A model generated the notes under the pieces. The model searched no databases. It was given only the letters and a program-made list of their open reading frames with translations, and was not told the origin of the DNA. A stretch of DNA of 64,000 nt, from contig JARVGK010000002.1 of assembly GCA_029762535.1 (NCBI GenBank), positions 32,001 through 96,000 of the forward strand. The letters are read 5' to 3'. Source of the DNA: Thermoplasmatota archaeon. Lineage in GTDB: Archaea > Thermoplasmatota > Penumbrarchaeia > Penumbrarchaeales > Penumbrarchaeaceae. Positions 45,273 through 64,000 of this stretch are shown piece by piece. The translations under genes were made by a program, and so were the position numbers. Within the stretch, counting starts at the first letter, position 1; every line of letters begins with the position of its first letter.

Positions 45273-45294
45273 CTTTTACCCCCCCTAAAGGATG

Positions 45295-45345: not shown

Positions 45346-45439
45346 AGACACGATCGATGGCTGATATTATTCCCCGCCACACAGAAGGAATACACAGCAT
45401 AGCGCGAATGATGTGAACGATCAATTATCAGAGACATGT

Positions 45440-45802: not shown

Positions 45803-45842
45803 ATGGGATCCAACCTATTATCAATTGATCTTAGAATATTTC

Positions 45843-45936
45843 CATCAACGGCCGCGAGTATGCGGAGTCCTGGGCGCAGTGATGGATTTGGGTGAGGGGC
45901 GATCAGCGCCCCGAACTTTATACTCGCGAGTTAAAG
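45843..45936 (-). mobile_element. attC-like site
   Basis: CAACggcCGCGAGTAT...ATACTCGCGaGTTA. Confidence 0.7.
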
Positions 45937-46219
45937 GAAACGAACGTAGTTATCCCGCAGGATAACGTATTGAGAGCGGAGCATGGCACGGAGCGAAGCG
46001 AAGTGAGCTTTTCGTCTGCGAAGATCATACAGCTGACGTAGTTATTTCTTGCTCTATTTATCGTTCAGATCCTCCGTGAGGGGGTTCGATACACACTTTT
46101 GTGTCATGGTATTATGGATGTCGGAGAACTCAGATAAAGGAATTGGAGATGGCATCAAATTACCTGACGATGTGCATCAGGCGTAAGCAACGAAAAGTAT
46201 ATCTTCATGGCGTCCATGC

Positions 46220-46246
46220 GTAACACGAATTATAATATTGTGCCAC
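46220..46246 (+). promoter_or_regulatory. NikR-like operator around the TATA box
   Basis: GTAACAC-N13-GTGCCAC enclosing TTATAA, upstream of a metal ABC operon. Confidence 0.3.
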
Positions 46247-46252
46247 CTGGAG

Positions 46253-46873
46253 ATGACACACATGACGAACCTTGAGAAAATGCTCATTGAGGCGGGCCGG
46301 TTCCACGGCCACATCTGCCCAGGACTGGCCATCGGAGTGGTGGCTTCTTACATTGCTCTTCGTGACGCGCGGCGTTCCGATGACGAGGAATTGGTGGCCA
46401 TCGTGGAGAATGATGCTTGCGGTGTTGATGCCATTCAGCACCTCACCGGATGCACCTTCGGCAAGGGAAACCTTGTGTTTCGGGACCATGGCAAGTCCGT
46501 CTATACATTCCTGAACCGAGCCACAGGCAAGGCCCTGCGCCTTTCTCTCGACCATTCCGCGATCGAAAGCAGCTTGCACGATCGTGAATTGTTCGAAAGC
46601 GTCCGCAATGGAACCGCAACTCCAGGGGAGATAGATGCGTTTCATGTTCGCTGGGAGGAGCGCGCCAGGGAGGTCCTTTACCGTGCTGGATCACTTTTCA
46701 AGGTCGATCAGGTGGACATTGCCTTCCCTGAGAAGGCCCGGATACATGACAATATTACTTGTGATAAGTGCAAAGAGCAAGTAATGGCCACCCGGATCGT
46801 GGAGACGGAACAGGGGCGCAAATTCTGCATACCATGCTCCGAAGAGAAAAAAGAAAAGGAGTATGGAAAATGA
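46253..46873 (+). CDS. FmdE family protein with C-terminal Zn finger
   Basis: FHGHICPGLAIG, ENDACGVDAIQ..TGCTFGKGNL, CDKC..CIPC. Confidence 0.9.
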   Translation: MTHMTNLEKMLIEAGRFHGHICPGLAIGVVASYIALRDARRSDDEELVAIVENDACGVDAIQHLTGCTFGKGNLVFRDHGKSVYTFLNRATGKALRLSLDHSAIESSLHDRELFESVRNGTATPGEIDAFHVRWEERAREVLYRAGSLFKVDQVDIAFPEKARIHDNITCDKCKEQVMATRIVETEQGRKFCIPCSEEKKEKEYGK

Positions 46874-47964
46874 AAAGAGCAAATCCAAGCTTCGCCACGT
46901 TGGGGCTGCTGCTAACTGTGTCGATCCTCTCCGCAGGATGCTTGAACGTCGAAACGGAAAATGATGGCGAAATGAAGGAGATCACGGACCTGCTTGATCG
47001 AAAAGTTGACGTTCCTGTTGAAGTGGAGCGCGTTGTTGGGGTCGCTTCGGGGACGGTCAGAATGCTGACATACCTTGAAGCAACCGACATGATCGTGGGC
47101 GTGGAGGACGTTGAGACCACGCCTCCCATGACGCCCTACCAGTTCGCCCATCCGGACCTGAAGGACCTCCCCGTTATTGGACCACAGCACGGAGGCGATG
47201 CGGAACTCATAATGGTCCAGCAGCCAGATGTGATCTTCCACTCATGCTCGCAGTTCGAAACGGCCACCGGGGCGATGATGGACGATCTCCAGACGAAGAC
47301 AGGCATACCCGTCGTGGCCATAGACCTTGGTGATCTTGGAGAAAGGCGGGCAGTTTTCGATCGATCCCTGCGCCTCATAGGGGATATTCTGGGAAAAGGC
47401 GATAGGGCAGGGGCGGTCATCTCCTACATCGACAAAGTTCTTGAGGATCTTGAAGATCGGACCTTTGATATACCGGATGACATCAAACCTTCGGTCTACG
47501 TTGGTGGAGTTGCGCTTCGAGGCTCCCGGGACATTCTATCGACGCGGGCGGACTATCCTCCTTTCGAGTACACCAACGTGAACAACGTCGCCTCGTCGGT
47601 GGGCACCGGGCATATGTTCCTCGATAAGGAACAACTTTTGGCCTGGGATCCCGACATTCTGTTCGTCGACTCCATGAGTTACGACCTTGTTGTTGATAGA
47701 ATGACCAATGATACCGCCTATTCCCTGCTGTCGGCCGTTGTCGAAGGCGACATATACACCGTCATGCCATACAATTCATATAACAACAATTTCGCGACGG
47801 TGCTGGCCAACTGTTACTTCGTTGGGTCGGTAGTGTACCCGGATGGTTTTGCAGATGTGAACGTCACGGCCGAGGCAGATGAGATATACTCCGCCATGTT
47901 GGGAGCGCCCGTATATGAGCAGATGGCAAAGAAATACCATGGGTTTGAAAAGATCGACCTTTAA
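46870..47964 (+). CDS. Fe/B12-type ABC substrate-binding lipoprotein
   Basis: Lipobox SAGC, TDLLDRKV..P, E.I...QPDVI. Confidence 0.85.
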   Translation: MKRANPSFATLGLLLTVSILSAGCLNVETENDGEMKEITDLLDRKVDVPVEVERVVGVASGTVRMLTYLEATDMIVGVEDVETTPPMTPYQFAHPDLKDLPVIGPQHGGDAELIMVQQPDVIFHSCSQFETATGAMMDDLQTKTGIPVVAIDLGDLGERRAVFDRSLRLIGDILGKGDRAGAVISYIDKVLEDLEDRTFDIPDDIKPSVYVGGVALRGSRDILSTRADYPPFEYTNVNNVASSVGTGHMFLDKEQLLAWDPDILFVDSMSYDLVVDRMTNDTAYSLLSAVVEGDIYTVMPYNSYNNNFATVLANCYFVGSVVYPDGFADVNVTAEADEIYSAMLGAPVYEQMAKKYHGFEKIDL

Positions 47965-47991
47965 AATGACTGAAAACTCGGGAAGTTCCAT

Positions 47992-49071
47992 ATGACAGAC
48001 CATAACTCTTCACATAAGCCCCGAGACCCGATCGCACAGCACAGGAGGCAGAACCTCTTAAGGAGAATTTTGCTGCTGACAGGGGCCATCCTATTGGGGC
48101 TGGTGGCCATGTACGCCCTCACCCTGGGACCGTACCCGATGACCATGATCGATGTTTTCAATGCATTCATTGGTAATGGATCGGATGTCCATCGGACCGT
48201 GATATGGAACATCCGTATGACGCGCATCGCCACCGCCATATTCGCAGGCGCCGCCCTGGCCGTTTCCGGGATGGTAATGCAGAACGTCCTTCGCAACCCC
48301 CTGGCATCACCATCGACACTGGGGGTCTCCCACGCCGCGTCCTTCGGGGCCGCCTTCGGAATCGTTGTCCTCGGCGCGGGCACCACACAGGCCCACTCAG
48401 TGTACTTCGACCACCCCTATTTATTGGCTTTATGCGCATTCGCCGCGGCCATGATTTCCACCGGAGTCATAATCCTGCTAGCGCGGATCAGGGATGCATC
48501 ACCCGAGACCATGATCCTGGCCGGCGTGGCCATGGCATCCCTGTTCACCGCAGGAACCACCTCACTTCGGTACTTCGCCAGTGATGAGGTGCAGCTATCA
48601 TCCATCATATTCTGGACCTTTGGTGACCTGGGCCGGACCGATTGGACCTCTGTGTCCATCATTTCTGTGGGCACCGTAGCCACCCTCATCTACTTCTTCC
48701 TCAATCGCTGGCGATACAATGCGATCAACGGCGGAGAGGATGTAGCCCGCACCTTGGGGGTCAATACCAATCGAACCCGCATATTGGGTCTGCTTATCTC
48801 ATCCCTCCTGACCGCTCTGGTCGTCTCCTTCGTGGGCATTATCGGGTTCGTTGGTCTGGTTGTTCCTCACATCGTTCGGCGCGTGGTTGGAACAGACGCC
48901 CGCTTTCTCATCCCCGGGTGCTGTATCGCCGGTGCCCTCCTCCTTCTGGTATCCGACACCGTCGCCCGGACTATGCTCTCACCCGTCATCATGCCGGTTG
49001 GGATCCTCACCTCATTCCTCGGGGCTCCACTTTTCATCTATCTCATCATCAGGGGGCGGAAGCATTGGTAG
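47992..49071 (+). CDS. FecCD/BtuC ABC permease
   Basis: RNPLASPSTLG, GIIGFVGLVVPH, PVGILTS..GAP. Confidence 0.9.
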   Translation: MTDHNSSHKPRDPIAQHRRQNLLRRILLLTGAILLGLVAMYALTLGPYPMTMIDVFNAFIGNGSDVHRTVIWNIRMTRIATAIFAGAALAVSGMVMQNVLRNPLASPSTLGVSHAASFGAAFGIVVLGAGTTQAHSVYFDHPYLLALCAFAAAMISTGVIILLARIRDASPETMILAGVAMASLFTAGTTSLRYFASDEVQLSSIIFWTFGDLGRTDWTSVSIISVGTVATLIYFFLNRWRYNAINGGEDVARTLGVNTNRTRILGLLISSLLTALVVSFVGIIGFVGLVVPHIVRRVVGTDARFLIPGCCIAGALLLLVSDTVARTMLSPVIMPVGILTSFLGAPLFIYLIIRGRKHW

Positions 49072-49862
49072 ATCTCGTCACCCTCGATGATGTCTCGTTC
49101 GCTTACGGGAAGATACAAGCACTGAGTGATATCACTCTTTCCTTTCGGACAGGTTCACTGGTAGGCATGATCGGTCCCAATGGATCGGGAAAGACAACCC
49201 TCATAAGATGCGTTTGTAGGCTTGTCAGGCCCGAAAATGGAACCGTGACGATCAATGGCAGGGACCTCTCATCACTGAACAGTCTTGATCTGGCCCGCAT
49301 GGTGGGGTATGTGCCCCAGATGCAGGAGAAGGCCTTTCCAGTGCCTATATTCGAAGCTGTTCTTGCGGGGCGCATACCTCATCTGGGATGGGCTCCTTCG
49401 GACCATGATCTTGCCATAGTCAAAAACGTCCTGGAACTCATGGACCTGGAAGATATCTCCCAGAGGAACATCAACACACTCAGTGGGGGACAGATGCAGC
49501 GCGTACAAATCGCCCGCGCCCTGGCCCAGGAACCCCTGGTATTGTGCCTTGATGAGCCCACCAGCAATCTGGACATCAAGCATCAACTGGGGCTCATGCG
49601 CATGGTACGAGATCTGACCCGGAAAAGAAAGATGCTGGCCCTCATGGCCATCCACGACCTAAACCTGGCATCTCAGTACTGTGACCGATTGGTCCTCCTC
49701 CAGAACGGTGAGGTCTTTTCCTCGGGAACACCACAGGAGGTCCTGACCCGGAAGAACGTCAGGAACGCATTCAATATCAACGTGGCCATTCACACCCACG
49801 GCGATCTGATACACATCGTGCCCGTGGAGAACACTGATCTCAGGAGGCTTGAACATACCTGA
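49065..49862 (+). CDS. ABC ATPase (FecE/BtuD-like)
   Basis: GPNGSGKT, LSGGQ, LDEPT; probable TTG start. Confidence 0.9.
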   Translation: MVDLVTLDDVSFAYGKIQALSDITLSFRTGSLVGMIGPNGSGKTTLIRCVCRLVRPENGTVTINGRDLSSLNSLDLARMVGYVPQMQEKAFPVPIFEAVLAGRIPHLGWAPSDHDLAIVKNVLELMDLEDISQRNINTLSGGQMQRVQIARALAQEPLVLCLDEPTSNLDIKHQLGLMRMVRDLTRKRKMLALMAIHDLNLASQYCDRLVLLQNGEVFSSGTPQEVLTRKNVRNAFNINVAIHTHGDLIHIVPVENTDLRRLEHT

Positions 49863-49954
49863 ATCTTCTGGCAACCCGGTCCAAGGATGGAGTGGGTGCC
49901 ACCCTCGAAGATCCATGGCCGTGGGTTATCCGATCCGAACGGAGTGATCCATTA

Positions 49955-50048
49955 GGATAACGGGTGGGGACATGCGACGTTGCCGAAGGCAATGTCCCCC
50001 TGGGCGCAGCGGCCCGCAGGGGCGCGGAGGCGTGTCCGCAAGTTAGAC
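49955..50048 (-). mobile_element. attC-like site
   Basis: TAACgggtgGGGACATGC...GCGTGTCCgcaaGTTA, followed by the conserved cccgag block. Confidence 0.65.
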
Positions 50049-50161
50049 AACCCGAGAGAAGCGAGAGCGCAGTGTGGTCGTGCACCGCATCCGAAGGCGA
50101 GGAGCGCAGAAGTTTCTAATTCTCCTGAACCACAGGGCTTGGCGTAGTTTTCAATAACCGG

Positions 50162-51544
50162 TTATGTTTCGTGAGGGGGAGTCTCATCCACCACTAACTC
50201 ATACCAGACATTGTTCCCACCGCCCTTTTTCACAATCTTGCCTTCCCTGATAAGTTCATTCAGGTCACGGAGGGCGGTGCCTCTGTGAATAGAGAAATGA
50301 TATTCAATGTCTTCTGCCATTATTCTCTCTTTAGCTTCAATAAAGTCCATAATCCACTTCAATCGATTTCCTTTGCGTTTGTTCCGCATTTGTATCTGTT
50401 CTTTGTCCGTTCTGTGCCCGATTTCCTTCGGTTCAGCTTCGGATTTGCTTCGGATGTCACGATGGAAGACGGCACTGAAAAAAGAACCAATCTCAAAATC
50501 GATTCCGAGATCGTACTCTTTCATCGATTTTCTCATCCTTTTAATGCCGGAGCCAGCTTTTTCCACCAGACCAAGTCTGTGAACCATGTCAGTTAAGAGA
50601 GGGTTTCTCTGAGCACTCCGTTTCCCCAGGTCTTCTTCCGGAAACAACAGCTTTCCCGGGTTCACTATTTCCACCCGCTCGGGGCTGATGTGTACCTGGA
50701 TGTTCGAGGAATAGAGATAATCCCTGTGTATCATTGCGTTTATGATGGCCTCCCGCAGGGCATCTTTCGGAAGCTCCAGCTTCGCGGTATGTTTCAGGCC
50801 GTCGATGATTATGGCAGTGTTCAGCTTTGACAGAAGATAATTGTTGGCGTCGTTCAGATTGGTGGCGAAGTCTACAGAGAATTCCTTCGAGTCTATGATA
50901 TCGATCTGCTCTTTATCGGCATACAGGAAGCAGGCCACCGTCGCATTGGGGAAATGTGATTTTACGTCCTTGGAAAAGAACAGAACGCCGCAGTTGTTCA
51001 GCTTTCCATTGGTCAGCAGGTTCAGGTTGCTCAGAATATGCTCTTTCGACAGGTCGCCGTCCAGCCCTGCTTCCTTCCGGAATCTGGCAAACGCGTCTTC
51101 TGAGAAATCCCGGTCTTTGAAATCAATGGTGTTTCTCTCGAAGGAGATGAGGTTCTCCTTCTGGAACAGTTCCCTAATCTCGTCCCTGTTCAGCTACTGG
51201 GAATTGGCGCCGTACCTCAGATAGAAGTGGCCGTTCACGGTGTAGGGCTTGTCCTTCCCTTCCGAGACGTATATCACCACCATATCTCTAACCTGCTCGA
51301 TCCGGGCATTGAAGGCGGGGTTCATGTTCCTGGCGATGTCTTGGATCTTCGACCTGTCGGAATTGGTCAGCTTGTAGCCTTTTATATCACCGGTCCTATC
51401 CTCAACACCGATTATTATCTTACCGCCGGAGGAGTTGGCAAAAGCACAGATGTCCTTTTCGATGGTACTGCTCAGCGACTCCTTCAGCTCGATGGTGTAG
51501 CCCTCACCGGTTTTCACGACATCAACAAGTTCTTCGTAGTTCAT
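50162..51544 (-). pseudogene. AlbA_2 + HATPase_c_4 + wHTH gene with in-frame TAG at 51194-51196
   Basis: ORFs 51194-51544 and 50162-50938 form one frame (GANSQ*LNRDEI). Confidence 0.8.
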
Positions 51545-51678
51545 ATCTCAACCCCGAGTTGTTCTTCCATCATGATCTCGAACTGCCTTGAGATTAGCAA
51601 CCCCTTCTTCTTGCAATGCTCTTTGTATTTGTCGTATAGATCGGAATCCACGCTCAAAGTGACGTTTCTTGACGGCAT
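51541..51678 (-). CDS. 45-aa RHH/CopG-like leader protein, copy A
   Basis: Not in track: MPSRNVTLSVDSDLYDKYKEHCKKKGLLISRQFEIMMEEQLGVEI. Confidence 0.75.
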   Translation of the reverse strand: MPSRNVTLSVDSDLYDKYKEHCKKKGLLISRQFEIMMEEQLGVEI

Positions 51679-51916
51679 GTTATCACATTCACAGGTAAAT
51701 GTCTGCATTGTTATTTAAATGTGTATGATCCGTAACCCACCCTCACTCCGGTTATTGAAAATTTAAATCGAGAGTTAGCGAGCCATTTAATGTGTGTTAT
51801 GCCTGGTTGCGTAGCAACCGAGTATCTGTTTCTTCTGGTGTTTCGTTAAACGAAGCCAAGCCCGTTTCTGGTGGTTCAGGTTCCACGATTAAAAGGAGGG
51901 GAAAATTAGGATTTTC

Positions 51917-52000
51917 GGATAACGGACGCGGCTAACCGAAGTTCGTGGGGAGAAGGTGCTTTAGCACCCGAAGCCTTAAAATGAGGTCGAGGCTTCGGTT
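51917..52000 (-). mobile_element. Atypical attC-like site (no GTTA arm)
   Basis: TAACGGACGCG start identical to the other sites; partner arm replaced by a ccgaagcct/aggcttcgg hairpin. Confidence 0.5.
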
Positions 52001-52133
52001 CCGAAAATCATCCTGCCGCCGTAGTTTTTTCTTGCTCTGTTTTTATTCATCTTTTCGTTATCCGTCGTGGGGGGTGTTCCGGTATTCTCTATTCTGCTTG
52101 TTTTTTTCCAAAATGCCTCAATACTCGTATGCT

Positions 52134-53542
52134 TCATATAATCTCCCAGCGTCCTTCCTTTCGACCGCCCGTGCGTCTGAGCAAACCATCGGATTGCAGT
52201 TTTTGGATGTTTCGTTCTATTGATCGTTCAGTAACTCCTATAAGAGAAGCCAGTTCAGGAATTGTTATTGTGTCGTTCTTTTCGATCTCCTGCAATATCT
52301 TTCCTGACGTTTTTCCAACGCTTTCCCGACGCTTTCTCTGGCGATTCCTGTATATAAAAGCGGAATCGCGGTAGTGAATACCGGTCCATCCATATACTTT
52401 GGAACGCCGTCGGGCGTGTAATGAGGTAGATACTTCCCGATATTCATCATCCCGGATCCAATTTCTTCCACCCAGCTCAGTTGTGCAAAGAACTTTGCAA
52501 TAACGGGATTCTTGGAGAAGGGCACCACTTTTTCGGGGTCAAGGACTCCCTCGACCCTGTAGTTGCTTGCGTTAGTGGTTTCTACACGATCTTTGTAAAT
52601 TATCAATCGGGCTGGATGGGCGTTCATGTATTCGCGATGCACCAGAAAATTAGCAATAACTTCCCGGAATATCTTATCGCGTAGACTTATCCTAGCGTCT
52701 CCTTCCAGGTAAAATGGGTCTGGAAGATGTTTGGCAATAAAGGCCATGAGCCGGTCGTATGCTTCAATGAGATTGCAATCTATACGGTCGCGGTCGTCAT
52801 AATGGTCCATCTGAACCCGGCGAACCATGGCATCGATCTTGTAATGAGGTAAAACACTCCGTATGGTCTCGTCTTTTCCCAGTAGCAGGATGGCAGCAAG
52901 GGTATAGCCCTCATTCCCGGTTTCCTGATCCTTTCTGAAAAGCCCGGCCTTGAGCAACAGCTGCTCATCGTCCAATTCTCTCCACGGATGATTCGGTCCA
53001 CGGGTTAATATGAGATTACGAAGCCTGGGCAGCATGTCCAAACGCAAATCGTCAAGAGTTGTGGCAGAATAAATTATGTTCTCGGTGTATGTCGCCCGCT
53101 TCCGGTTACTAATCTCCGCGATCCGGTGGGGCTGGGTCACACGGAAATCGCCATCATTGCTTCGGTCGAAGACAACACCGTTGGTTTTATGCACCTAGGA
53201 ACTAGCAGGCACTGAAATATGCATGATCTTCTTTCCATCAAGAACATGTATAACGGGATGGAGGATGAACGGCGGATCCAGCTTTTGAGTATTATTGGAA
53301 AGATTGACCATATCTGTTTTCATCTTATCGATGGATTGCGGATCGATTCCCAATACCCTTCCTTGATCATCAACTCCGAGAAGAATGTCTCCTCCGTCCC
53401 GGTTCAGCATTGCACATATTGTTTCGAATAAACTCGTGGGAAGAGATTTTCTTGCTTCCTTGTATTCTACCCGGATACCCTCGCCCATTGCAAGCAGATG
53501 TTTAAGGCGAATTTGCATCGGGTCACTTTGCATTTTTCTCAT
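52134..53542 (-). pseudogene. AlbA_2 + HATPase_c_4 + wHTH gene with in-frame TAG (53195-53197) and a frameshift near 52320
   Basis: VPASS*VHKT; wHTH (ITIPELASLIGVTERSIERNI...GRWEII) lies in another frame. Confidence 0.8.
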
Positions 53543-53672
53543 CCTCTTTCATCTGTTCTTCCATCATGATCTCGAACTGTCTTGATATGAGCCAACCTTT
53601 CCTTTTACAGTAATCTCTGTATTTATTATAGAGATTTTCATCGAACCTTAAAGTAACGTTCTTTGAAGGCAT
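53523..53672 (-). CDS. 49-aa RHH/CopG-like leader protein, copy B
   Basis: MPSKNVTLRFDENLYNKYRDYCKRKGWLISRQFEIMMEEQMKEDEKNAK. Confidence 0.75.
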   Translation of the reverse strand: MPSKNVTLRFDENLYNKYRDYCKRKGWLISRQFEIMMEEQMKEDEKNAK

Positions 53673-53918
53673 TTTAATCACTCACTGCACATACTTACAA
53701 ATGCATATAAATGCATCATTTTTGTTATATGACACCCCCCCCACGCCCGTTGAGCAAGAAAAATTTGGGTGAGCGGAGCGAACCATTTAACCGGTGTTAT
53801 ACTGGGTTGCGAAGCAATCTGGCACATGTCGTTATTCTCTTTTCGTGTGGGTTAAACGAAGGCGGCAGGAATAGATGATTTTCGCTTGTCTGGCCAATGC
53901 CGGGAGACGAAAAATTTC

Positions 53919-54014
53919 ATTTAACGGACGCGACTATGCGAAGTTGCGTAGCGAAGCGGAGCAATTTGGGTCGAGCGAAGTGCAACGAGCGAGCCGTATA
54001 GTCGCGAGTTATCC
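53919..54014 (-). mobile_element. attC-like site
   Basis: TAACggaCGCGACTAT...ATAGTCGCGaGTTA. Confidence 0.8.
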
Positions 54015-54060
54015 GATCCGAGCTATGCGAGGATGAGCATCTTTGATGCGAACGTCGGGT

Positions 54061-54483
54061 TCAGTGGTTTTTATTAGCTATATTAAAGAGTTCTTTCGTC
54101 GAGAATCTCTTTAATTTGTCCTGTCTATCAAAATCCTTATCTTCAGTCCATATCCCACTTGCCTTAACCGCCAAACCTAAAGCTAGAAAGGGCGTATCTT
54201 TAATATCGATATCTTTCATGATTTCTTCAGCGAGTTCAAGATGATCTATGAATACATCCGATGGAATCAATTCGATTCTCTCGAGAATTGATAATAATAT
54301 GATGTCAAATTCTCTATCGGTTAACTTTGATTTTTCGATTAGGTAATGTCGATATTTTTCTATCTCTGTTATTACGTAATCTGGAGCAATAAAATTGAAC
54401 TCCTCATTGAAGATGATCTTTCTTGTTTGTGAATCTTTGATCAATCCAGCCATGATTCTATTTGAATCTATGACCATCTTCAT
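54061..54483 (-). CDS. vapC: PIN/VapC toxin
   Basis: VIDSN...E...DIKDTPFLALG...WTEDKDF. Confidence 0.85.
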   Translation of the reverse strand: MKMVIDSNRIMAGLIKDSQTRKIIFNEEFNFIAPDYVITEIEKYRHYLIEKSKLTDREFDIILLSILERIELIPSDVFIDHLELAEEIMKDIDIKDTPFLALGLAVKASGIWTEDKDFDRQDKLKRFSTKELFNIANKNH

Positions 54484-54713
54484 GCGGATTGCTTCCTTTT
54501 GTAATGTTTGTAGATGCCTTCTTTGACCTTTTCATCGAGAGCCATGACTTCTTCTTCAGTCAGTTCGCTCTCTTGAGTCAAAGAGTCAAGCAATGCCAAC
54601 TTCTTTGCATAATCGGATATTGCCCTTCTAGCAATCTCGCTCCATCTGATCTCGCTGTGTTGTTTCATGATCACATGAATATCTGAAGGTACCGATAGGG
54701 TTATGTTGGGCAT
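54480..54713 (-). CDS. vapB: RHH antitoxin
   Basis: MPNITLSVP...WSEIARRAI; coupled to the PIN gene. Confidence 0.75.
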   Translation of the reverse strand: MPNITLSVPSDIHVIMKQHSEIRWSEIARRAISDYAKKLALLDSLTQESELTEEEVMALDEKVKEGIYKHYKRKQSA

Positions 54714-54730
54714 ATGATTACCACACAGGC

Positions 54731-54748
54731 ATATGTGATATCACATAT
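54731..54748. promoter_or_regulatory. Perfect 18-bp palindrome, putative antitoxin operator
   Basis: ATATGTGATATCACATAT upstream of the vapB ATG. Confidence 0.55.
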
Positions 54749-54781
54749 TTATTAATTGCCGTAACCACTGAACCCGATGTC

Positions 54782-54877
54782 GGATAACGGACGCGACTAT
54801 GCGAAGTTGCGTAGCGAAGCGGAGCAATTTGGGTCGAGCGAAGTGCAACGAGCGAGCCGTATGAGCGCGAGTTAAGT
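54782..54877 (-). mobile_element. attC-like site
   Basis: Nearly identical to the 53919 site. Confidence 0.8.
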
Positions 54878-54972
54878 TCCCCGAGCCGAAGTTATCCGTA
54901 AGGATAACGTAGGCGAGAGCGCAGCGTGGTCCGGAGTTATCGAAGATAACGACGGAAGTTGACCAGGATCAA

Positions 54973-55143
54973 TTAAGAAAACAATATCAAATATACAATG
55001 AATATCAGTATTATACTAAGGAGAATATAAAAGGGAATACTCTTGCCTTTTTTTGCTAAATAGATTAATAACCCTATAATAGCAAGGATAAATGAAAGAA
55101 GACAACATCCCGGAATTAATAAAAAATATGTTGGCATTCCCAT
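54973..55143 (-). CDS. 56-aa two-TM membrane protein (single-gene cassette)
   Basis: Not in track: MGMPTYFLLIPGCCLLSFILAIIGLLIYLAKKGKSIPFYILLSIILIFIVYLILFS; AGGAG SD; fills the cassette. Confidence 0.65.
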   Translation of the reverse strand: MGMPTYFLLIPGCCLLSFILAIIGLLIYLAKKGKSIPFYILLSIILIFIVYLILFS

Positions 55144-55176
55144 TAATATTCTCCTGTAAAAATGCTGGTCAATTGA

Positions 55177-55272
55177 ACTTAACGGACGCGACTATGCGAA
55201 GTTTGCGAACGTAGTGAGCAAATTTGGGTGAGGGGCGGGCCGAGCCCCGAACCGCATAGTGGCGTGTTATTC
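55177..55272 (-). mobile_element. attC-like site
   Basis: TAACggacgcgACTATGCG...CGCATAGTggcgtGTTA. Confidence 0.8.
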
Positions 55273-55344
55273 GCCCCGAGCCGTAGGCGAGAGCGCAGCG
55301 TGGTCCGAAGTTATCCGAAGGATAACGAAGGAAGTTGAGGGGGT

Positions 55345-55743
55345 CTAATGCCCGGATAAGAATTCGGAAGATTGAATGATCCTCACGCTATCATATTGCT
55401 TGATCTTCAGTAAATGATTATCTCCCGAAATGATATATTCAGCCTTTCCTAAAATTGCTGTTTCCAAGACCATGTTATCCTTTGGATCATCTTCGATGAC
55501 ATATAGAGAATCTGTTATGAAAACGAGATCAGACATCAAGATCAAACTTTGAATGAAAGCATGGATCTTATCATCCGGGACATGGAACTTTTTTCGAAGA
55601 ACCATCTCAGTTTCTGAAAGAATCTGTTCGGAGGTGACAGATCTTATTTTTCCTGACTTGCATCTTGTCAATAATGACCTTTCATTCCCATTCCAGAAAA
55701 AGCCAGAGATGAGAATGTTCGAATCAAGGACTATCCGGACCAA
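55345..55743 (-). CDS. PIN-family toxin
   Basis: VLDSNILISG...DDPKDNMVLETA...IISGDNHLL. Confidence 0.85.
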   Translation of the reverse strand: MVRIVLDSNILISGFFWNGNERSLLTRCKSGKIRSVTSEQILSETEMVLRKKFHVPDDKIHAFIQSLILMSDLVFITDSLYVIEDDPKDNMVLETAILGKAEYIISGDNHLLKIKQYDSVRIIQSSEFLSGH

Positions 55744-55746
55744 AGA

Positions 55747-56013
55747 TCAATTCTCCTTGGATCTGATTTCCTTTATTGCTTTAAGTACATCTGATTTCTT
55801 TAACATCTTCTCCTTGGCGAAATCACTTCCCCAATGGAGAAGATTTTGGAAATCCTCATCGGTGGGGATGTCGATCTTTTTCAGGACTATCGTTTCGTTC
55901 TCTCCATACATGGCAAAGAACTCACCGGGTTTGAATCCGAGGAGTTCGCGAAGGTCTTTCGGTATCACGATCTGCCCTTTGGAGGAGAGCCTTGTGATGG
56001 TTACTTCGGACAT
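55747..56013 (-). CDS. AbrB/MazE/SpoVT antitoxin
   Basis: LSSKGQIVIPKDLRELLG; operator-like IR AGTAAGA-CCA-TCTTACT at 56021-56037. Confidence 0.85.
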   Translation of the reverse strand: MSEVTITRLSSKGQIVIPKDLRELLGFKPGEFFAMYGENETIVLKKIDIPTDEDFQNLLHWGSDFAKEKMLKKSDVLKAIKEIRSKEN

Positions 56014-56089
56014 GGTAATAAGTAAGACCATCTTACTATTTCATTTTTTCGGGTACTTGTAGACGATCACATTAAACCCCCGAAATTGC

Positions 56090-56180
56090 GAATAACGTCC
56101 TGGGGATATGGGAAGTTGGCCGAAGGCCAATTTGGGTGAAGGGTCTGCAAGACCCGTAACCTCATATCCCCATGTTATCT
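56090..56180 (-). mobile_element. attC-like site
   Basis: TAACgtccTGGGGATATG...CATATCCCCAtGTTA: a different arm sequence with pairing retained. Confidence 0.8.
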
Positions 56181-56322
56181 TCCCCGAGCGATAGCGAGAG
56201 TGCAACGGGGTCGAGGCACGAAGTGCCGAAGAAGTTTGAAACCCTGCCGTAAATTCCGTTGTTGCCGTAGTTTTTTCTTACTCTATTCATCGTTCACGTT
56301 CTCCGTGGGGGTGTTCCGTTTA

Positions 56323-58920
56323 TCATGCTTTCAACTCTAATTTTTCATTAAATGCTCCAATGAAATTTGTTTTCAGATCTTCATTGTAGAATGGAAGCCC
56401 GATAATTTTGTATTTCGTATTTTCTGCCAGTATCTCGATTTGATAATTTCCTTCAATGTTTGTTAGGAATTGCTGTTTCCAGTCATCTTTTTCAAGTAAG
56501 TGACTTCCTTTCGGTTCGATGAAAACCTGGTAATAGAGAATTTGTTTGGTTTTTTTCTCTTTTAAGAATAGGACAAAATCTGGTTCAAGAGAATTTCCAT
56601 CTGAAAAGCGATAAAGCTGGAAAATTTTCTGGTTTCTAAGTAGATATATATCTGAATATCTTTTTTGTAATTTATCAATTGCATCGTTTATGAATCTTAC
56701 AAAGTATTTCTCTTCTGATGTTCCATAATTTTCTTCATATACATACCAGTCCTTGTTTTTTAGGTCTAATCGTAAATCTAGTTTTAGAGTTTCACTCATC
56801 CCAATACCGATTTCTTTGTCAGATGTGTCATTTACTGCGATATTGATTATTTTGTCTTCTACTAAATCTTTAATTTTGCTTGCTTTGAATAATATAGTCC
56901 CGACATATTCAGTATAACCAGATTCGATATTGCTTTGAAGTTTCTTCAAAACCTCTGTACATATTTCCAGTTTATCATCACAATTGAGTGAATCTAATTT
57001 TGTAATTGAAGTCGTTACCTCTACCTGAACATCTTTTAAAGCTTCAATGAACTTGCTGATAGATTTTGATTTAGGGAAATATTTTTTCAGGTTATTAAAT
57101 TTGTAAAAATCCAACCTGGTTAGAGATTTTCGCATAATTTGAATTCCGAAGTCGTTCAGTTTAAAAATCTTTGATCTTTTCTCTTCAACATCTTTCTTCT
57201 TTTCCCCGTTGAATATAGTAGAATCTCTAACATATCCTGTTCTGAGACCAATTTTATACAATTTATCGATGTCCAAATCTGATATATCCTTGATTTTAGT
57301 TCTATCTGATTTTTTCTTTTCGTTGATGAATATCAGGCCATTAGACCAAAAATCTGATTTCTTAAACCCATCTTTGACTTTCAAATGGATTTCTCGCTTT
57401 TCCGGTGGCATGATGCCAGATTCCACCAAAGCTGTAGTCAATTCTTGAATGTATCTTGGGTTATGGGCACTGTGGTAATAAAGCTCTTCAAGAATTTTCA
57501 ACTCGTTGTTTGGTTCCTCATCGTATTTTCTCTTGAATCGCTCCTGTTCATCTGTTATTGTGAAAGGAAAATATCTAGCGCCTCTCCCGATAAGTTGGGC
57601 TTCTGCGATGGTCGTTTTACCAGGCTTCCCTGCTTTTGCATCTCTAGTATCATAAAGTCTTACAATGTCAAATAGATTGAGAACATCCCAACCTTCGTTA
57701 AGCATACCGACTGCAAAAACAACCCGAATTTCGTTATCTTTATCCTCAAGCGAATTAACTAGTAACTGTTTCTTTTCACTCTCACTTTTAGAATTGACTG
57801 ATAAACACTTATTCTCATGAAATTCTTCTTTAATCTCTGATACCAAATTCTCCAATGTAATGTCATTTTCTTCAAAATAATTAAAAGCCGTATTAAGAAT
57901 CGATTTTTGTTCAACATTGTTTTTTATTTTTGATATGTCGCTAATTTTCAAGGATTTGATCTTTTTCTTAAATTCATCTTCAATAGTGGTAGATTCATCA
58001 ATGGTTCTGGATTTCAACAGGATTACTGGCTTAATAAATTTCTTATGCTTTTCTGCAATCTTTCGTCTATATTGACTTAGGATGACTGACTGTAATGTCC
58101 TTTCTATTGGCTTTAAATCTGCCTCCATCACTTTGACTTCCTTTGAATACCCGTCTAATCTAAACTGTTTTAATGAGTAATCATAGATTATTTTACTATC
58201 GTATTTATCTCTAATTGCTGGATGACTCAAATCAACGGTGGCGGTATACTCCAGCATGATATTTCCCAGGTTTGAATTGAAGATATTATTTACGGTATGT
58301 TCCCAGGTAGTTTTGGCTAATTTTTCTTCCTTACCCAATTTATTCTTTGTCCAAGCATTGATATGGTGGGCTTCATCGGAAATGATTACGATTTTTTTAT
58401 CCTTGAAGTCCTCGTAAGTCATGCTGTTCTCGCGCGGGGTATTCATGAAACAGTGAAGCCCCTGGATTGTGGTAAAATGGATATTGATCGCATCAGGGTT
58501 AGCACCCTCGAAATTTTCTACCGGACTAATGAAAACCTCTTTTTCTCCAAATTTTATGTGTTCGTTGAACAGATATTTTGATGAAAGTAGATTTAAGAAA
58601 TTATCTTTAGTCTTTTCTATGATGTTGGTACTATTCACAAAGAAAAGAAAATTCCGATAACCTTTCTCATAAAGATAGAGAATATTGGCGGCCATCAATA
58701 ATGTTTTTCCGCTTCCAGTGGCCATGTGAAACAGCAATTGCGTTGGTTTGATTCTCCTTTTATCTTTTTCATAATTATAAATGAATCTGCGTATAGCTTC
58801 CAGTTGATATTCTCTCAATTCAAACAAATGATTCAGATTATTTGTAATATTGTCTGGAATCTCAGTACCCAGCAAGCCCTGTTCTGAAAGAACATCATAC
58901 GTTTCCTTCAAAGTGGGCAT
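56323..58920 (-). CDS. res: Type III restriction endonuclease subunit
   Basis: MATGSGKT, DEAH, EGWDV, Q.IGRG.R, C-terminal PDF...IEPKG. Confidence 0.9.
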   Translation of the reverse strand: MPTLKETYDVLSEQGLLGTEIPDNITNNLNHLFELREYQLEAIRRFIYNYEKDKRRIKPTQLLFHMATGSGKTLLMAANILYLYEKGYRNFLFFVNSTNIIEKTKDNFLNLLSSKYLFNEHIKFGEKEVFISPVENFEGANPDAINIHFTTIQGLHCFMNTPRENSMTYEDFKDKKIVIISDEAHHINAWTKNKLGKEEKLAKTTWEHTVNNIFNSNLGNIMLEYTATVDLSHPAIRDKYDSKIIYDYSLKQFRLDGYSKEVKVMEADLKPIERTLQSVILSQYRRKIAEKHKKFIKPVILLKSRTIDESTTIEDEFKKKIKSLKISDISKIKNNVEQKSILNTAFNYFEENDITLENLVSEIKEEFHENKCLSVNSKSESEKKQLLVNSLEDKDNEIRVVFAVGMLNEGWDVLNLFDIVRLYDTRDAKAGKPGKTTIAEAQLIGRGARYFPFTITDEQERFKRKYDEEPNNELKILEELYYHSAHNPRYIQELTTALVESGIMPPEKREIHLKVKDGFKKSDFWSNGLIFINEKKKSDRTKIKDISDLDIDKLYKIGLRTGYVRDSTIFNGEKKKDVEEKRSKIFKLNDFGIQIMRKSLTRLDFYKFNNLKKYFPKSKSISKFIEALKDVQVEVTTSITKLDSLNCDDKLEICTEVLKKLQSNIESGYTEYVGTILFKASKIKDLVEDKIINIAVNDTSDKEIGIGMSETLKLDLRLDLKNKDWYVYEENYGTSEEKYFVRFINDAIDKLQKRYSDIYLLRNQKIFQLYRFSDGNSLEPDFVLFLKEKKTKQILYYQVFIEPKGSHLLEKDDWKQQFLTNIEGNYQIEILAENTKYKIIGLPFYNEDLKTNFIGAFNEKLELKA

Positions 58921-58921
58921 G

Positions 58922-60928
58922 TTATAACACTCCGTAGAAGCGTTTGTTTATTTCTTTGTCCTCGTCTGATACGCCATAATCCTCGTCATCAATTTCGTTG
59001 AAATTAACATAAAGCTGATTTTTATCCAGACACTCAATTAGGAATGCCTTTTGGTTCTCCAAGTCCAAGTCCTTGAAATCTTGAGCATTTTCATCGAATT
59101 GCTTCGGATCTATTCTGTAACTAAGGAAAGCTTCTTTTTTCATCTTATCCCATATTGCCAATAAATCTTTTATTGTCTTTGCTTCTTGAATTTTATCCAT
59201 ATAGGATTCATTCCATTTCATCAGTTCACAATAAATAAATTCACCACCACCTTCCCACTTTACATATTTTGAGATACCAGATTGATCATAATTTTCAATT
59301 TTCTCTATTAATTTACCCTTTGAGTTTGCATTTCCGATAACATTTTTTAATCTCATAAGCGAATCATTTTTACCATAATCCAATTGTTCTATGCCGAGAT
59401 ATTTTCTACCCAACTTATGCGCAACTGCACATGTTGTACCACTACCTAAGAAGAAATCCAAAACAATATCTCCCTTATCAGTTCCCATTTCAATTATTCT
59501 CCTTAAAAGTTTTTCTGGTTTTTTACCACGTTTTAATTTAACATTACCTTCATTAGCAATTCCTTCCCAAGGTATATCCGTCCATATATTTGATAATAAA
59601 TTTGTTGGAACGAGATTACCATCAATGTTTCTAACCTTGTTATTATAAAAAGTAATTTCTTTTCCATTTAAGATATATCTATCAGTTAAATTATCTCTTC
59701 GATTAACAAATACTTTATCCAGATTCTTCAAAGATTCTTCCTTTATGTCTAATGTTTCCTTTCCAGCATCAATGTTTATTTCTGTAAATCGAAAGACTCT
59801 TTCCTTATTATTCAAGGCATAGTCCGCTAATTCAGATAAAGTACGATTTGTTCCTAATTCTTTTTTTAAATATCGACTATTTTTAACCTTAAACTTTTCC
59901 GCAATAATATCTTTAATATTTGAATAAGTCCAATTTGATGGGTTTTCTTCAATATTGTCTATCTGAAATGAATAATTTTCATCATAATTAGTTTCTTCGT
60001 ATTGAGTGATGTACTTCCACAACTTTTTAGACTTTGCATAAATTAATATATATTCGGCACTTTCAAAAACTCCCAAATTTACAGTTTTAAAACCAGACGG
60101 AGATCGAGTTTTTATACTAATAAGATTAATGAAATTATTATCAAATATTTCATCTAGTAATATTCTTAATCTGGATACATGAATGTCGCTAATTTGAATG
60201 AAAATGGCCCCATCCTTACATAGTAATTCTCGTGCAATTTCTAATCTGTTTTTCATAAATGTAAGCCATGTTGAGTAGTTAAAACTATCATTATACTGAA
60301 ACTCATCATTCCCTGTATTGTAGGGAGGGTCAATGTAAATTAATTTAATTTTTCCAGCATATCTTTTTTTCAATGAATGCAAAGCAAGGAGATTATTACC
60401 TTTAATCATGATATTATCTGTTGTTTTAATTTCTTCTATGTTATGCTCTCCTTTTGCATCAATCCGTTTTAAACCAGTCAATACTTTAGGATCGAATAAT
60501 CTGTCAATCTCATCAGGAGCAAGAATTTCATTCCAAAATATTTCTTTGCGATTTTTTTCTTCGGGATCTTCCATTCCGCCTTCCAAAACGCAATCTTTGT
60601 ATGGCCAGGATAGAACCACTTCACTACTTTTTGTTAGGTATTCGTTTTGTGTTGTAAGTCCAATCTTGTTTTTGAAAGTGGTGTACGAATCTGGTAAGAA
60701 TTCTTTGTTATCAACGAATTTCATGAATTTTTCTTTGTCAAAAATGATTGCTTTATTTACAATTTTAAAGAAATGCACTTTTAATTTTTCGTTTTCAAGA
60801 AGGAGGGAAATCAGCTCATCATCGAGTTTAAGACCAAGTTCGATTATTTTATTTTTCAATAATTTATCATCTGAAACTAAACGTTCATCCTTTTTTAATG
60901 TGTCAATCATTTCATCAATTAACGTCAT
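58922..60928 (-). CDS. mod: Type III R-M methyltransferase
   Basis: IYIDPPY, KKPEKLL, DFFLGSGTT (beta class), adjacent to res. Confidence 0.9.
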   Translation of the reverse strand: MTLIDEMIDTLKKDERLVSDDKLLKNKIIELGLKLDDELISLLLENEKLKVHFFKIVNKAIIFDKEKFMKFVDNKEFLPDSYTTFKNKIGLTTQNEYLTKSSEVVLSWPYKDCVLEGGMEDPEEKNRKEIFWNEILAPDEIDRLFDPKVLTGLKRIDAKGEHNIEEIKTTDNIMIKGNNLLALHSLKKRYAGKIKLIYIDPPYNTGNDEFQYNDSFNYSTWLTFMKNRLEIARELLCKDGAIFIQISDIHVSRLRILLDEIFDNNFINLISIKTRSPSGFKTVNLGVFESAEYILIYAKSKKLWKYITQYEETNYDENYSFQIDNIEENPSNWTYSNIKDIIAEKFKVKNSRYLKKELGTNRTLSELADYALNNKERVFRFTEINIDAGKETLDIKEESLKNLDKVFVNRRDNLTDRYILNGKEITFYNNKVRNIDGNLVPTNLLSNIWTDIPWEGIANEGNVKLKRGKKPEKLLRRIIEMGTDKGDIVLDFFLGSGTTCAVAHKLGRKYLGIEQLDYGKNDSLMRLKNVIGNANSKGKLIEKIENYDQSGISKYVKWEGGGEFIYCELMKWNESYMDKIQEAKTIKDLLAIWDKMKKEAFLSYRIDPKQFDENAQDFKDLDLENQKAFLIECLDKNQLYVNFNEIDDEDYGVSDEDKEINKRFYGVL

Positions 60929-63405
60929 TTCTTTTCCTCCTTATTATTCGAAATTAAATTCCAGTTTACGCTTCCACAATTACATCTTACGCCACTTTGT
61001 TTCATTCCATCTGCTGTAATTTTCAATATACCACCACAACTATGACATGAAAAGAGATAATATAAATCTTGAAATGCCTCTTTTATAGGTCGAAAGTCTT
61101 TATCACTAAAGTTTATCCAATTATTAAAATGAACGTTTGCATTAATTCCCCATTGTTCAGCATATGTGCGTTTATAAATGCTAGAACGCATTGAATCTAA
61201 TTCTTCAAATTTTGCCGTCTTTTCTGATTTTTCCCAGGAAACTGATGATTTTTTAGCCTTTTTAATTAAGTCCTTATATCCATCCATTAATGGTATTGTA
61301 AAATCACCAAGATCTAGCTGGCCGTTTAATTTGTATCGTACTCGTATCTGTAATGAATCACACACTAGCCCAAAATACTCTTCCAAACCGCGTCTTAATC
61401 TCGAAGCAGCAGAAGGAACATCGTTTCTTGTCAAATCTTCTTCAATTTTACTCCAGAGGTCTGCTTGAAGATTTACTTGAGGCCCTGTATCAACTTTCCA
61501 ATTATAGAATTCAACCATGCAACTCTTATTATCAACAACTCCTTCACTTCTCATTTGATTAGCCCATGTCTTATCATGGGTTGTGATTAAAAATTGTCTG
61601 TTTGGGAAATTTGATGCAAGCACGCGACAAATATCTCGCCTATGATTCGAATCCACAGACATTATTACATCATCTAAGATAATGAGGTCAATAAGACCTT
61701 CTGCCAAACGTTCAGATAGAGCCAAATATAAACAAAGCCCCATACTATCTTGATGACCTTCACTGTGGAGGGCTTGTGGAGAAAAAGCCCCTCGGCCATA
61801 AAAATCAACTTCAAATTTTAATGCCGCCCCATCTGGTGAAATAGTCGCGGAAAAATCTTTTTCGTCTGAACCATGTAATTCTTTATATAATTGCACAAAG
61901 CGATCATTTACATCTTTGTAAAGATTTCCCAATATAGTATCTCTGGAATATTCAAATGTATTTAACAATATCTCTGCTTTTTTATATGAGATACTTGCGT
62001 TTTTAAAATCATTTTTTGCTTTTTCAAGACCTTTTAAATTTTCTTCAAGGCGTGTTAATGTATCCCACGCAGTTTGTTCAGGGGTTATCGGTGGCGCTTT
62101 GGTTTTAACAATTTCTATTAGAGTTTGAAGATTTTGTTTAATTTCCTCAGAAATAAGCATGTGTTTTACTCTGTCGCTATCAAATTCGATCAATGGATAT
62201 TTTTCGAGTGGATTAGCTAATGCTATGGATAACTGATTCAAATCTGACGAACATGTTTTCAATTGGATGCTCCATTCCTTTTCCTCAATTTTATTTAATA
62301 CCTCAATTATTTTATTTATGCTTCCTCTTGTATTGTTCACACGCTTTGATATGGAATCGGACAAAGATGTAATTCTGTTTCTTTGTTGTGATATTTCTTC
62401 AATATCAGTCAATTTTGAGGTAAGATATTCATCTAATTTACCGCTTGGCCACTGTGTATCACACAATGGGCAGTTACCCGTGTCATCGATCATAGATTTT
62501 CCAAGTTCAATTAATTGAAATCGATTGTATGTTTTCAATAATTTCGGATTCGATTTTATAGAGTTTAGAAGATTTCTAAGTTCTTTATCAAATTCAATGA
62601 TTCCTTTTTGATTCTTTTCGTCAAAGGAATTATGAATATTTTGAATATCTTTTTCAAATATAGTAAGATTGACATGATTGTCGTTGATAATACTGGTAGG
62701 TGGCGTAAGGGCCTTTTTTAACGTATCTGAAGAAACCGAATTCAATTCATTACTTTTTAATGTTTTACGTAATTGATTTACGTAATCCAGTAGCATCTTT
62801 TCATTAAATGATGTTGTTTGAATTGTTGCGTTAACCTCACCTTTTTTCTCATCTATTGCTTCTTCTTTTGTCTGCTTTTCTCTTTTAAAAGTATTTTCAA
62901 TATTTACAAATGCTTTTCTTATTATTTCAATGTCTGATATATTTAATAATGCTTGAATCTCCTGGGCACGTGTACTACCATCAGAGGTAATATATTTTAA
63001 AATTTCTCGTCTTGTTAATACATGTTCTCCCCTCGATGCAAGGGATAAAATGGGTTCAAGATTAGGTAAATATTTTTCATCAGATACAACTAACTTAGTG
63101 GGTTGTGCCATATCTCTTTTTATTTCAATAGGAACATTAATTTTTGGAAATTGAATAACTGCACGTACAATAGCATCTTTTGGCTTGTGATCAATATGTG
63201 GGCCACATTCTTTCAATTTGATATTGCGAGTTCCCTCTCCCTTTAAACGAGAAATTCGACCTGTTAAGAGGAAATCAATGGCATCAACAACAGCACTTTT
63301 CCCTGAACCATTTGGCCCCCATATTACTATATTTTTTCCTTGGGGCGTTAGTTTTATATGGGTTATACCCCGCACATTTTCAATTTCAAGCTCAATCAGT
63401 TTCAA
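60925..63405 (-). CDS. Rad50/SMC-like ABC ATPase with Zn hook and RloC/PrrC-like C-terminus
   Basis: GPNGSGKS, coiled coil with CPLC, HSEG, LIILDD, TTHD; then RRGLEEYF...NANVH and CHSC/CNC. Confidence 0.7.
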   Translation of the reverse strand: MKLIELEIENVRGITHIKLTPQGKNIVIWGPNGSGKSAVVDAIDFLLTGRISRLKGEGTRNIKLKECGPHIDHKPKDAIVRAVIQFPKINVPIEIKRDMAQPTKLVVSDEKYLPNLEPILSLASRGEHVLTRREILKYITSDGSTRAQEIQALLNISDIEIIRKAFVNIENTFKREKQTKEEAIDEKKGEVNATIQTTSFNEKMLLDYVNQLRKTLKSNELNSVSSDTLKKALTPPTSIINDNHVNLTIFEKDIQNIHNSFDEKNQKGIIEFDKELRNLLNSIKSNPKLLKTYNRFQLIELGKSMIDDTGNCPLCDTQWPSGKLDEYLTSKLTDIEEISQQRNRITSLSDSISKRVNNTRGSINKIIEVLNKIEEKEWSIQLKTCSSDLNQLSIALANPLEKYPLIEFDSDRVKHMLISEEIKQNLQTLIEIVKTKAPPITPEQTAWDTLTRLEENLKGLEKAKNDFKNASISYKKAEILLNTFEYSRDTILGNLYKDVNDRFVQLYKELHGSDEKDFSATISPDGAALKFEVDFYGRGAFSPQALHSEGHQDSMGLCLYLALSERLAEGLIDLIILDDVIMSVDSNHRRDICRVLASNFPNRQFLITTHDKTWANQMRSEGVVDNKSCMVEFYNWKVDTGPQVNLQADLWSKIEEDLTRNDVPSAASRLRRGLEEYFGLVCDSLQIRVRYKLNGQLDLGDFTIPLMDGYKDLIKKAKKSSVSWEKSEKTAKFEELDSMRSSIYKRTYAEQWGINANVHFNNWINFSDKDFRPIKEAFQDLYYLFSCHSCGGILKITADGMKQSGVRCNCGSVNWNLISNNKEEKK

Positions 63406-63595
63406 GTTCTTCCCTCGAAGTAGTTTTTAATACGCTGATAATTTTTTTAGTATCAGCTAATTGTCCTGTTGAATTAAGTTCACGAAGCTTATTGATGGTC
63501 ACCACATTAAATTCATCTTTATCATTGAGGTCTGAAAACATTTTATCAAGTATGTGGTCAATCAATGAAGATGTTTGTATTGTTTCGGGAGTCAT
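63392..63595 (-). CDS. Small hypothetical protein coupled to the ATPase
   Basis: 67 aa, GGAGGT SD, overlaps both neighbours. Confidence 0.55.
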   Translation of the reverse strand: MTPETIQTSSLIDHILDKMFSDLNDKDEFNVVTINKLRELNSTGQLADTKKIISVLKTTSREELETD

Positions 63596-63732
63596 TTATT
63601 TACCTCCTTCATCTGTTCTTCCATCATAATTTCAAATTGTCGGGATATGAGCCACCCCTTCTTCTTACAGAATCCTTTGTATCGTTCGTAAAGGTCTTCA
63701 TCAACACTGAGGGTTACGTTCTTTGAAGGCAT
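63592..63732 (-). CDS. 46-aa RHH/CopG-like leader protein, copy C
   Basis: MPSKNVTLSVDEDLYERYKGFCKKKGWLISRQFEIMMEEQMKEVNK. Confidence 0.75.
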   Translation of the reverse strand: MPSKNVTLSVDEDLYERYKGFCKKKGWLISRQFEIMMEEQMKEVNK

Positions 63733-64000
63733 GATAATCACATTCATCTCCAAATGTCAGCAAATGTATATAAGTATTCGCTTTTTCCGTTTCTATTCGT
63801 TGTTCGGAACACCCCCCACGTCCATAGAGTAAGAAAAAATTTGGGTATTCGCTTTGCGAATCCGTTTAACATCCGTTAGCCGAGAGTCTGGACTTGTCCA
63901 GATTTTGGTGGTTCTTTCCGTCTTGTTTCCGTTAAACGAAGGCAACAACGTCATGAATTTACGGTCTCCTTTTCATAGGCATGGTTTCAAATTGAAGATA

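Follow-up and report, generated by a model that had tools for sequence, protein, structure and literature searches.

This locus raises the question of why genes of an archaeon should be enclosed by nested inverted repeats. In the window, i.e. the whole stretch of 64,000 nt analysed here from a Thermoplasmatota archaeon (genome 93 % complete), a first-pass annotation had described such repeats and proposed that each cassette could fold as one giant hairpin inside a scaffold related to attC sites. The repeats are real, all ten quoted arm pairs being present, and each pair of them is formed by the left and right end of one gene cassette, the cassettes belonging to an integron-like array. The kinship with attC was borne out; the new gene-capture route suggested along with it was not. 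That an integron-like array with an adjacent enzyme is present seems highly probable, and it is probable that this array is served by a tyrosine recombinase of Xer size without the I2 insertion of IntI, the pairing of a cassette's own ends assembling the substrate.

All cassettes lie in one orientation beside an integrase gene and an attI-like site, the arrangement by which an integron is recognized, with sites and cassettes given here on the plus strand. The leftmost intact site body, of the TAAC..GTTA type, lies at 45846–45933 (covariance model match of 66 bits) and is followed by the left end of a long-scaffold cassette (45930–46090) whose right end is missing. The adjoining 46100–49900 resembles chromosome (54 % GC) and includes an unannotated 211-aa ORF and an iron ABC transporter; the arrangement at 45930–49960, i.e. 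an orphan left end and 3.8 kb of chromosome-like DNA, is an old rearrangement splitting the array. A decayed site body (49958–50045, 30 bits) precedes cassette 1 (50042–51925), a long-scaffold cassette with a decayed left core that carries a Schlafen AlbA_2 plus HATPase_c_4 gene (50162–51544, minus strand) with an in-frame TAG at 51194–51196. Next come a truncated site body recognized by sequence, without a covariance model match (51922–51978), and the long-scaffold cassette 2 (51978–53925), whose cargo is a second gene of the same kind (52265–53542, minus strand) with an in-frame TAG at 53195–53197. Three small cassettes follow, all with complete agreement (5/5) between the five nucleotides (N5) after GTTA and those before the next TAAC. 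A site body at 53922–54011 (86 bits) precedes the first VapBC-type cassette (54008–54788; PIN gene 54061–54483 and 77-aa partner 54480–54713, both on the minus strand), one at 54785–54874 (75 bits) a cassette with a 56-aa ORF (54871–55183; ORF 54973–55143, minus strand), and one at 55180–55269 (85 bits) the second VapBC-type cassette (55266–56096; PIN gene 55345–55743 and MazE/AbrB antitoxin 55747–56031, both on the minus strand). After a further site body (56093–56177, 69 bits), a 7.8-kb long-scaffold restriction–modification (R-M) cassette extends from 56174 to 64000 and ends 2 nt past the window; its genes, all on the minus strand, encode type III Res (56323–58920), Mod (58922–60928) and an SMC-like AAA ATPase (60925–63405). 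The next site body has its first two bases at 63999–64000 (whole: L001:2000–2107). Right of the window lie the integrase-proximal cassette with a 1365-aa sacsin-like ATPase-domain gene (L001:2104–6726) and, about 5 kb from the window, the dif-like attI-like site (L001:6714–6742) and the gene of a 266-aa tyrosine recombinase without the IntI insertion (L001:6856–7656, plus strand), divergent from the array. The cargo has a GC content of 33–45 %, compared with about 51–54 % in the flanks, and includes no transposase gene in the window; an Rfam search of 40000–64000 gave no match.

Several smaller features accompany the array. GNAT-like, 219-aa and 115-aa genes on the minus strand at 43600–45840, with decayed site fragments at about 45290–45350, are probably older cassettes. 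Small hairpins of the GTTATC..GATAAC type, like miniature outer arms, occur in left flanks at 54887–54950, 45945–45969 and 49940–49964, and 49925–49961 may be an empty unit. Upstream of the cargo, all three long-scaffold cassettes share a 139-nt element (69–77 % alike; 51549–51687, 53543–53681 and 63603–63741), which may represent the promoter and the decayed remains of a small gene for a ribbon-helix-helix regulator. Far from the array, on another contig of the same genome, a lone site stands with an RHH/PIN toxin–antitoxin cassette that has lost its right end (L042 10540–10621).

How far do the ends of a cassette pair? Perfect arm pairs begin at 56271/63824 (16 bp), 54055/54763 (15 bp), 50148/51748 (14 bp), 52026/53752 (12 bp), 56247/63955 and 56257/63941 (10 bp each) and 54959/55165 (8 bp); those at 56233/63978 and 56304/63805 are imperfect, and the outer 9-bp pair of the R-M cassette is completed 2 nt past the window end. 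Collinear nested stems between the 200-nt ends add up to 66 bp in the R-M cassette, 47 and 39 bp in Schlafen cassettes 1 and 2, 31 and 24 bp in two small cassettes and 45 bp in the cassette just right of the window, compared with means of 6–12 bp and maxima of 15–31 bp in 60 shuffles. The 31 bp of the first VapBC-type cassette equal its own shuffle maximum and no more, and the 18 bp of the second are within chance in the same test. Inverted repeats within the cargo of the window's large cassettes show no clear excess. Only the ends pair in these cassettes, which therefore have stem-and-loop shapes and are not rods; folding of whole cassettes into rods was rejected for this window and for cassettes above 3 kb, where repeats in coding regions show no excess. 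Of the giant hairpin, the pairing thus stands, but it is the outer half of a recombination site whose strands come from the cassette's own two ends. The cargo was also rightly placed at the position of the small sub-hairpin of the site: the loop is equivalent because the site is pseudo-twofold symmetric, both halves running purine-AG-TT-stem ... stem-AA-TT. The further statement that in the three large cassettes the inner stem follows GTAG and precedes an attC-type half-site needs one correction, since the cassette at 50042 has a decayed TTTAAAT and not TTTGGGT.

The other half of the site, the site body, opens with TAAC, followed by a small bulge of approximately 2 nt in the spacer and an 11-bp stem. 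GAAG then leads to a variable hairpin and TTTGG to a second one, after which the partner strand and GTTA complete the body. The covariation check proposed for a larger set gave a clear outcome: in 24 copies, 95 % of the cells are paired and 14 of the 21 pairs show double-sided changes, which none of 500 shuffles reproduced, while slid controls pair in 34–48 %. Of 37 genomes from the host's class, 19 have a match to the covariance model, as do 47 of 121 from one Nanoarchaeia order, and seven of the eight matches in the host genome fall in one array; class 1 attC sites are not matched. The 11-bp L-type stem is unbroken, without an extrahelical base, and the bulge lies beside AAC instead. CGNAG, a motif that forms very stable DNA mini-hairpins, is strongly biased to the folded strand in site bodies (222 : 12 against the other strand) and left flanks (121 : 8) compared with the cargo (65 : 77), and it appears from this asymmetry that sites and left flanks fold on one strand. 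The GTAG of the first-pass annotation, in which a link to REP/TnpA(REP) substrates of HUH enzymes had been seen, is one of several such C-GNA-G loops, alternating with GAAG and GGAG, and no Y1 transposase was found in the genome; the link was not sustained. The main gene lies opposite the folded strand in 40 of 56 cassettes, i.e. in about three in ten it lies on the other strand.

Where the strands would be exchanged is indicated by the bases next to the core. N5 after GTTA and N5 before the next TAAC match perfectly in 45 of 78 intervals, compared with 7 of 127 across single sites and 120 of 6006 between non-cognate ends; some poorly matching intervals probably span missed sites. The left arm of the site reads ATT-N5-TAA in 92 of 119 sites and RYYYAAC in 34 of 119. 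The attI-like site, found in 15 loci, has the same arm, a 6-nt spacer and a second arm, the arms being 11 bp long. In a relative with a 94 % identical enzyme, the sequence to the right of TAA|C at this site is almost the same, and the one to the left differs; many integrase contigs end at the attI-like site and give no comparison there. N5 matching and this strain comparison together place the crossover at TAA|C, i.e. most likely between A and C of a conserved AAC on the folded strand, and a cassette thus begins with the C of a TAA|C and closes with the TAA of the following one. Each site has two arms resembling Xer boxes, the inner one within the branched covarying body. As judged from the N5 matches, the arm pattern and the strain comparison, the outer arm (ATT-N5-TAA / TTA-N5) becomes complete only through pairing of the cassette's own two ends. 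Double-stranded cassette sites have 8–10 nt between the arms, compared with 6 at the attI-like site, the excess being looped out on folding. In relatives, the attI-like site (L001 6714–6775) is itself built as an inverted repeat, though not a perfect one, and a second arm of the Xer type follows some 40 nt downstream, so that this site may fold too.

The 266-aa enzyme has the PF13495 and PF00589 domains with intact catalytic residues, and its gene is the sole full-length PF00589 match in the genome. Compared with VchIntIA it lacks about 44 residues, i.e. the IntI I2 insertion, and its Lys-to-His spacing is 63 aa (58–68 aa in array-adjacent enzymes) versus 106–107 aa in IntI1, IntI2 and a Pseudoalteromonas IntI. 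It scores 187 bits with the IntI model TIGR02249 (cut-off 265) and 185 bits with the XerA model NF040815 (cut-off 220). In the tree it clusters, with good support, with enzymes of Thermoplasmatota, Nanoarchaeia and Altiarchaeales, and this group is separate from XerC/D, dif-adjacent XerA and IntI; other array-adjacent enzymes fall into neighbouring, poorly resolved groups and do not form one clade. Among 20 loci of the Nanoarchaeia order chosen by the site model alone, seven have a relative of the recombinase on the same side and strand, while some array-adjacent enzymes have the opposite orientation. Within the family, sites occur in 6 of 8 genomes with the enzyme versus 3 of 16 without it, these being metagenome-assembled genomes whose kin are not independent. 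It is adjacency and co-occurrence that suggest that this enzyme acts on these sites.

Beyond N5, the median pairing energy is −20 kcal/mol for cognate and −8 kcal/mol for non-cognate ends, the cognate pairing being the stronger in 55 of 56 cassettes; pairing strength correlates weakly with cassette length (rho about −0.31, p 0.02). The second stem begins after purine-AG and stops before TT, mirroring the inner half of the site. The search for the same scaffold with other cargo was successful: the long scaffold of the three large cassettes recurs in two phyla with unrelated cargo (G020, G035, G082, G117 and two metagenome contigs). Its inner module (AAAA-TTTGGGT, a hairpin, a dif-like TAA-N6-TTA and the partner GTTAAAC-GAAG; 53760–53872, plus strand) has further copies at about 51758–51862 and 63836–63950. 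Long-scaffold cassettes are larger (1.4–7.8 kb versus a median of 0.7 kb, p 0.003, n=5), and larger cassettes tend towards the longer conserved scaffold, while many small ones, in relatives, have perfect stems in coding DNA. In cassettes of up to 3 kb, perfect repeats of at least 12 bp with both arms in coding sequence number 23, compared with 3.1 under synonymous shuffling; control DNA outside arrays has 2 versus 1.8 expected. At least 10 codons from gene ends there are 16 versus 2.15 (maximum 7 in 300 synonymous shuffles), six of the 16 coming from one locus. The excess is absent in cassettes above 3 kb and in the cargo of this window. Given array and enzyme, the extended pairing of cassette ends is likely to have a functional role.

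Could a known system account for all this? An ordinary integron or CALIN, in which a classical IntI acting in trans would use the sites as attC variants and the end pairing would be the usual R'/R'' complementarity at somewhat greater length, would explain the conserved AAC and a crossover position as in attC (PMC5027507), a purine-rich folded strand with the main gene mostly opposite it, and the 12 bp of end complementarity, beyond the 7-bp core, in the class 1 cassette aadA2 (L181 2360–3165); archaeal CALINs are also known (PMC9668308). Against it, no TIGR02249 match above cut-off was found in the 37 + 121 = 158 genomes searched, ATT-N5-TAA far outnumbers RYYYAAC, the L-type stem has no extrahelical base, the site model misses class 1 attC, and the end pairing extends over tens of bp, up to 66; we consider this explanation quite unlikely. 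Still a little less credible is a double-stranded dif-module system of the pdif/IMEX kind, run by the host's chromosomal XerA with the hairpins being incidental. The arms do resemble Xer boxes, the attI-like site has a 6-nt spacer and the enzyme scores about equally with the XerA and IntI models, below both cut-offs, but the double-stranded cassette sites are too widely spaced in comparison with the attI-like site, the strand asymmetry is strong and in the tree the enzyme is separate from both XerC/D and dif-adjacent XerA. Non-autonomous elements of the IS/MITE or REP/HUH kind, bordered by terminal inverted repeats, to which perfect terminal stems and a GTAG beside a stem might point, are largely refuted and very improbable: no IS/MITE signature was found, a TAAC core is shared without any target duplication, the repeats are specific to each cassette and not shared by a family, all units run in one direction in one array, no PF01797 (HUH Y1) match exists in the 93 % complete genome, and other GNA loops, GAAG and GGAG, occur in the place of GTAG.

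A more serious competitor accepts array and enzyme and takes the extended pairing for a by-product, i.e. a scar of cassette birth or repair, one end having been copied onto the other by fold-back, or a means to protect or compact a single-stranded circle. Every cassette has innermost stems of its own, perfectly paired, and many of these reach across a gene end or sit within genes. The coding-region stems show no strand preference, and neither G-T versus A-C counts nor the folding z-score assigned them to a strand, so that they could be due to mRNA structure or to copying in a symmetric manner. On the other hand, between Thermoplasmatota and Nanoarchaeia the long scaffold has preserved its helices by compensatory changes. 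Its stem in front of GTAG is paired at 9.3 of 11 positions in cognate and 5.5 in non-cognate combinations, a matrix for the T-rich inner stem, misregistered in two rows, being left out. The purine-AG-TT / AA-TT junction is also conserved across cassettes. Compensatory changes and conserved junction indicate selection, and we regard a mere by-product as rather unlikely.

The array works like an integron and yet lacks the features that define one, i.e. the I2 domain, the R' consensus and the extrahelical bases of the L-box (PMC5027507, PMC9668308). It shares with integrons (same sources) the divergent tyrosine recombinase gene with PF13495 N-terminal domain, the adjacent insertion site, a one-directional array, AAC with the crossover between A and C, one folded strand, and defence and toxin–antitoxin cargo. 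In contrast to integrons, its enzyme has no I2 insertion, its site is branched, with a paired spacer, a small bulge and no extrahelical L-box base, its arm is the Xer-like ATT-N5-TAA, its cassette ends pair over tens of bases, sometimes reaching coding DNA, and a sizeable minority of main genes lies on the other strand. Folded single-stranded DNA that mimics a double-stranded dif-like site for an I2-less enzyme, the two strands of the site coming from distant parts of one molecule, is likewise seen in the attP of CTX-phi and in IMEX using XerC/D (PMC7790495); those depend on host XerCD at dif, whereas here a dedicated recombinase stands beside an array of many unrelated gene cassettes, and no phage is involved. 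In size and fold the enzyme is like archaeal XerA (PDB 4a8e, 5hxy), and the attI-like site, as in XerA/dif and pdif, has the two 11-bp arms around a spacer of 6 nt (6–8 bp in Xer/dif). Unlike XerA, however, it forms a separate branch, and the cassette sites fit the Xer pattern, and would work, only when folded. Strand-specific DNA hairpins with GNA loops are also a feature of IS200/IS605 and REP/TnpA(REP), from which the present system differs in its tyrosine recombinase geometry and array organization, no HUH enzyme having been found in this genome.

Under our reading of end pairing as substrate assembly, pairing in single-stranded DNA would draw two neighbouring sites into a four-way junction at two TAA|C points, and one pair of strand exchanges there would release a circle. 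The site of the circle would then fold into a duplex resembling dif, the cargo forming one of its loops, and the circle would insert at the attI-like site beside the recombinase gene, to be resolved by replication, by analogy with IntI or CTX-phi. For action on folded DNA by an enzyme without I2, CTX-phi is the precedent (PMC7790495). Excision of classical cassettes is reported to be penalized by length (PMC5371416), a penalty that end pairing could ease.

Short complementarity of cassette ends is textbook knowledge; the nested extent of the pairing, the branched modules and the enzyme are not. A literature search, with most subscription papers outside its reach, found no description of such a system. 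The I2 domain is regarded as the innovation through which integrases became able to recombine single-stranded sites (PMC7790495), and its presence is a requirement in surveys for integrons (PMC9668308). A cassette system without I2 would escape such screens. With this array, the origin of integrons from Xer enzymes can be tested directly. We put forward tentatively, as possible though not yet the expected outcome, a second and widespread class of archaeal integrons, in which an I2-less recombinase shuffles cassettes that fold their own ends, and in small ones even coding DNA, into the substrate. If so, such integrons would show the step from Xer/dif to IntI/attC in living form, and the perfect cassette-specific stems would record how genes become cassettes.

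There are also signs of movement. The same cassette has different neighbours in G004 and L046, a remnant of a G004-type cassette lies on another contig of the host genome, and sediment samples with hardly any coverage of the flanking host DNA contain close copies of cassettes from the window. By these sequence comparisons, both cassettes and scaffolds pass between arrays and hosts. No excised circle was seen in contigs, and the joints met there are due to related arrays that other organisms carry.

Defence and toxin–antitoxin genes are prominent among the cargo. In both Schlafen AlbA_2 genes, a CAG-to-TAG change makes a stop at almost equivalent codons (117 and 116), right where the AlbA_2 domain ends; in other samples CAG stands at both positions. 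The contexts (GCWGC-like and CCWGG-like) would fit methylcytosine deamination. Read-through by pyrrolysine was rejected, with no PylS above cut-off and CAG at both positions elsewhere.

Related recombinases were seen in other settings as well. Longer I2-less enzymes (350–390 aa) stand beside sites and point towards the array in L153 and L154 (genomes G034 and G031), and Terriglobia genomes (L057–L096) harbour dozens of near-identical copies per genome of a relative of about 270–300 aa, a behaviour like that of insertion sequences. Finally, one large unit beside a related recombinase (L131 1–9630) carries TIR (ThsB-like) genes and an SNF2 helicase, i.e. a multi-gene defence cargo.
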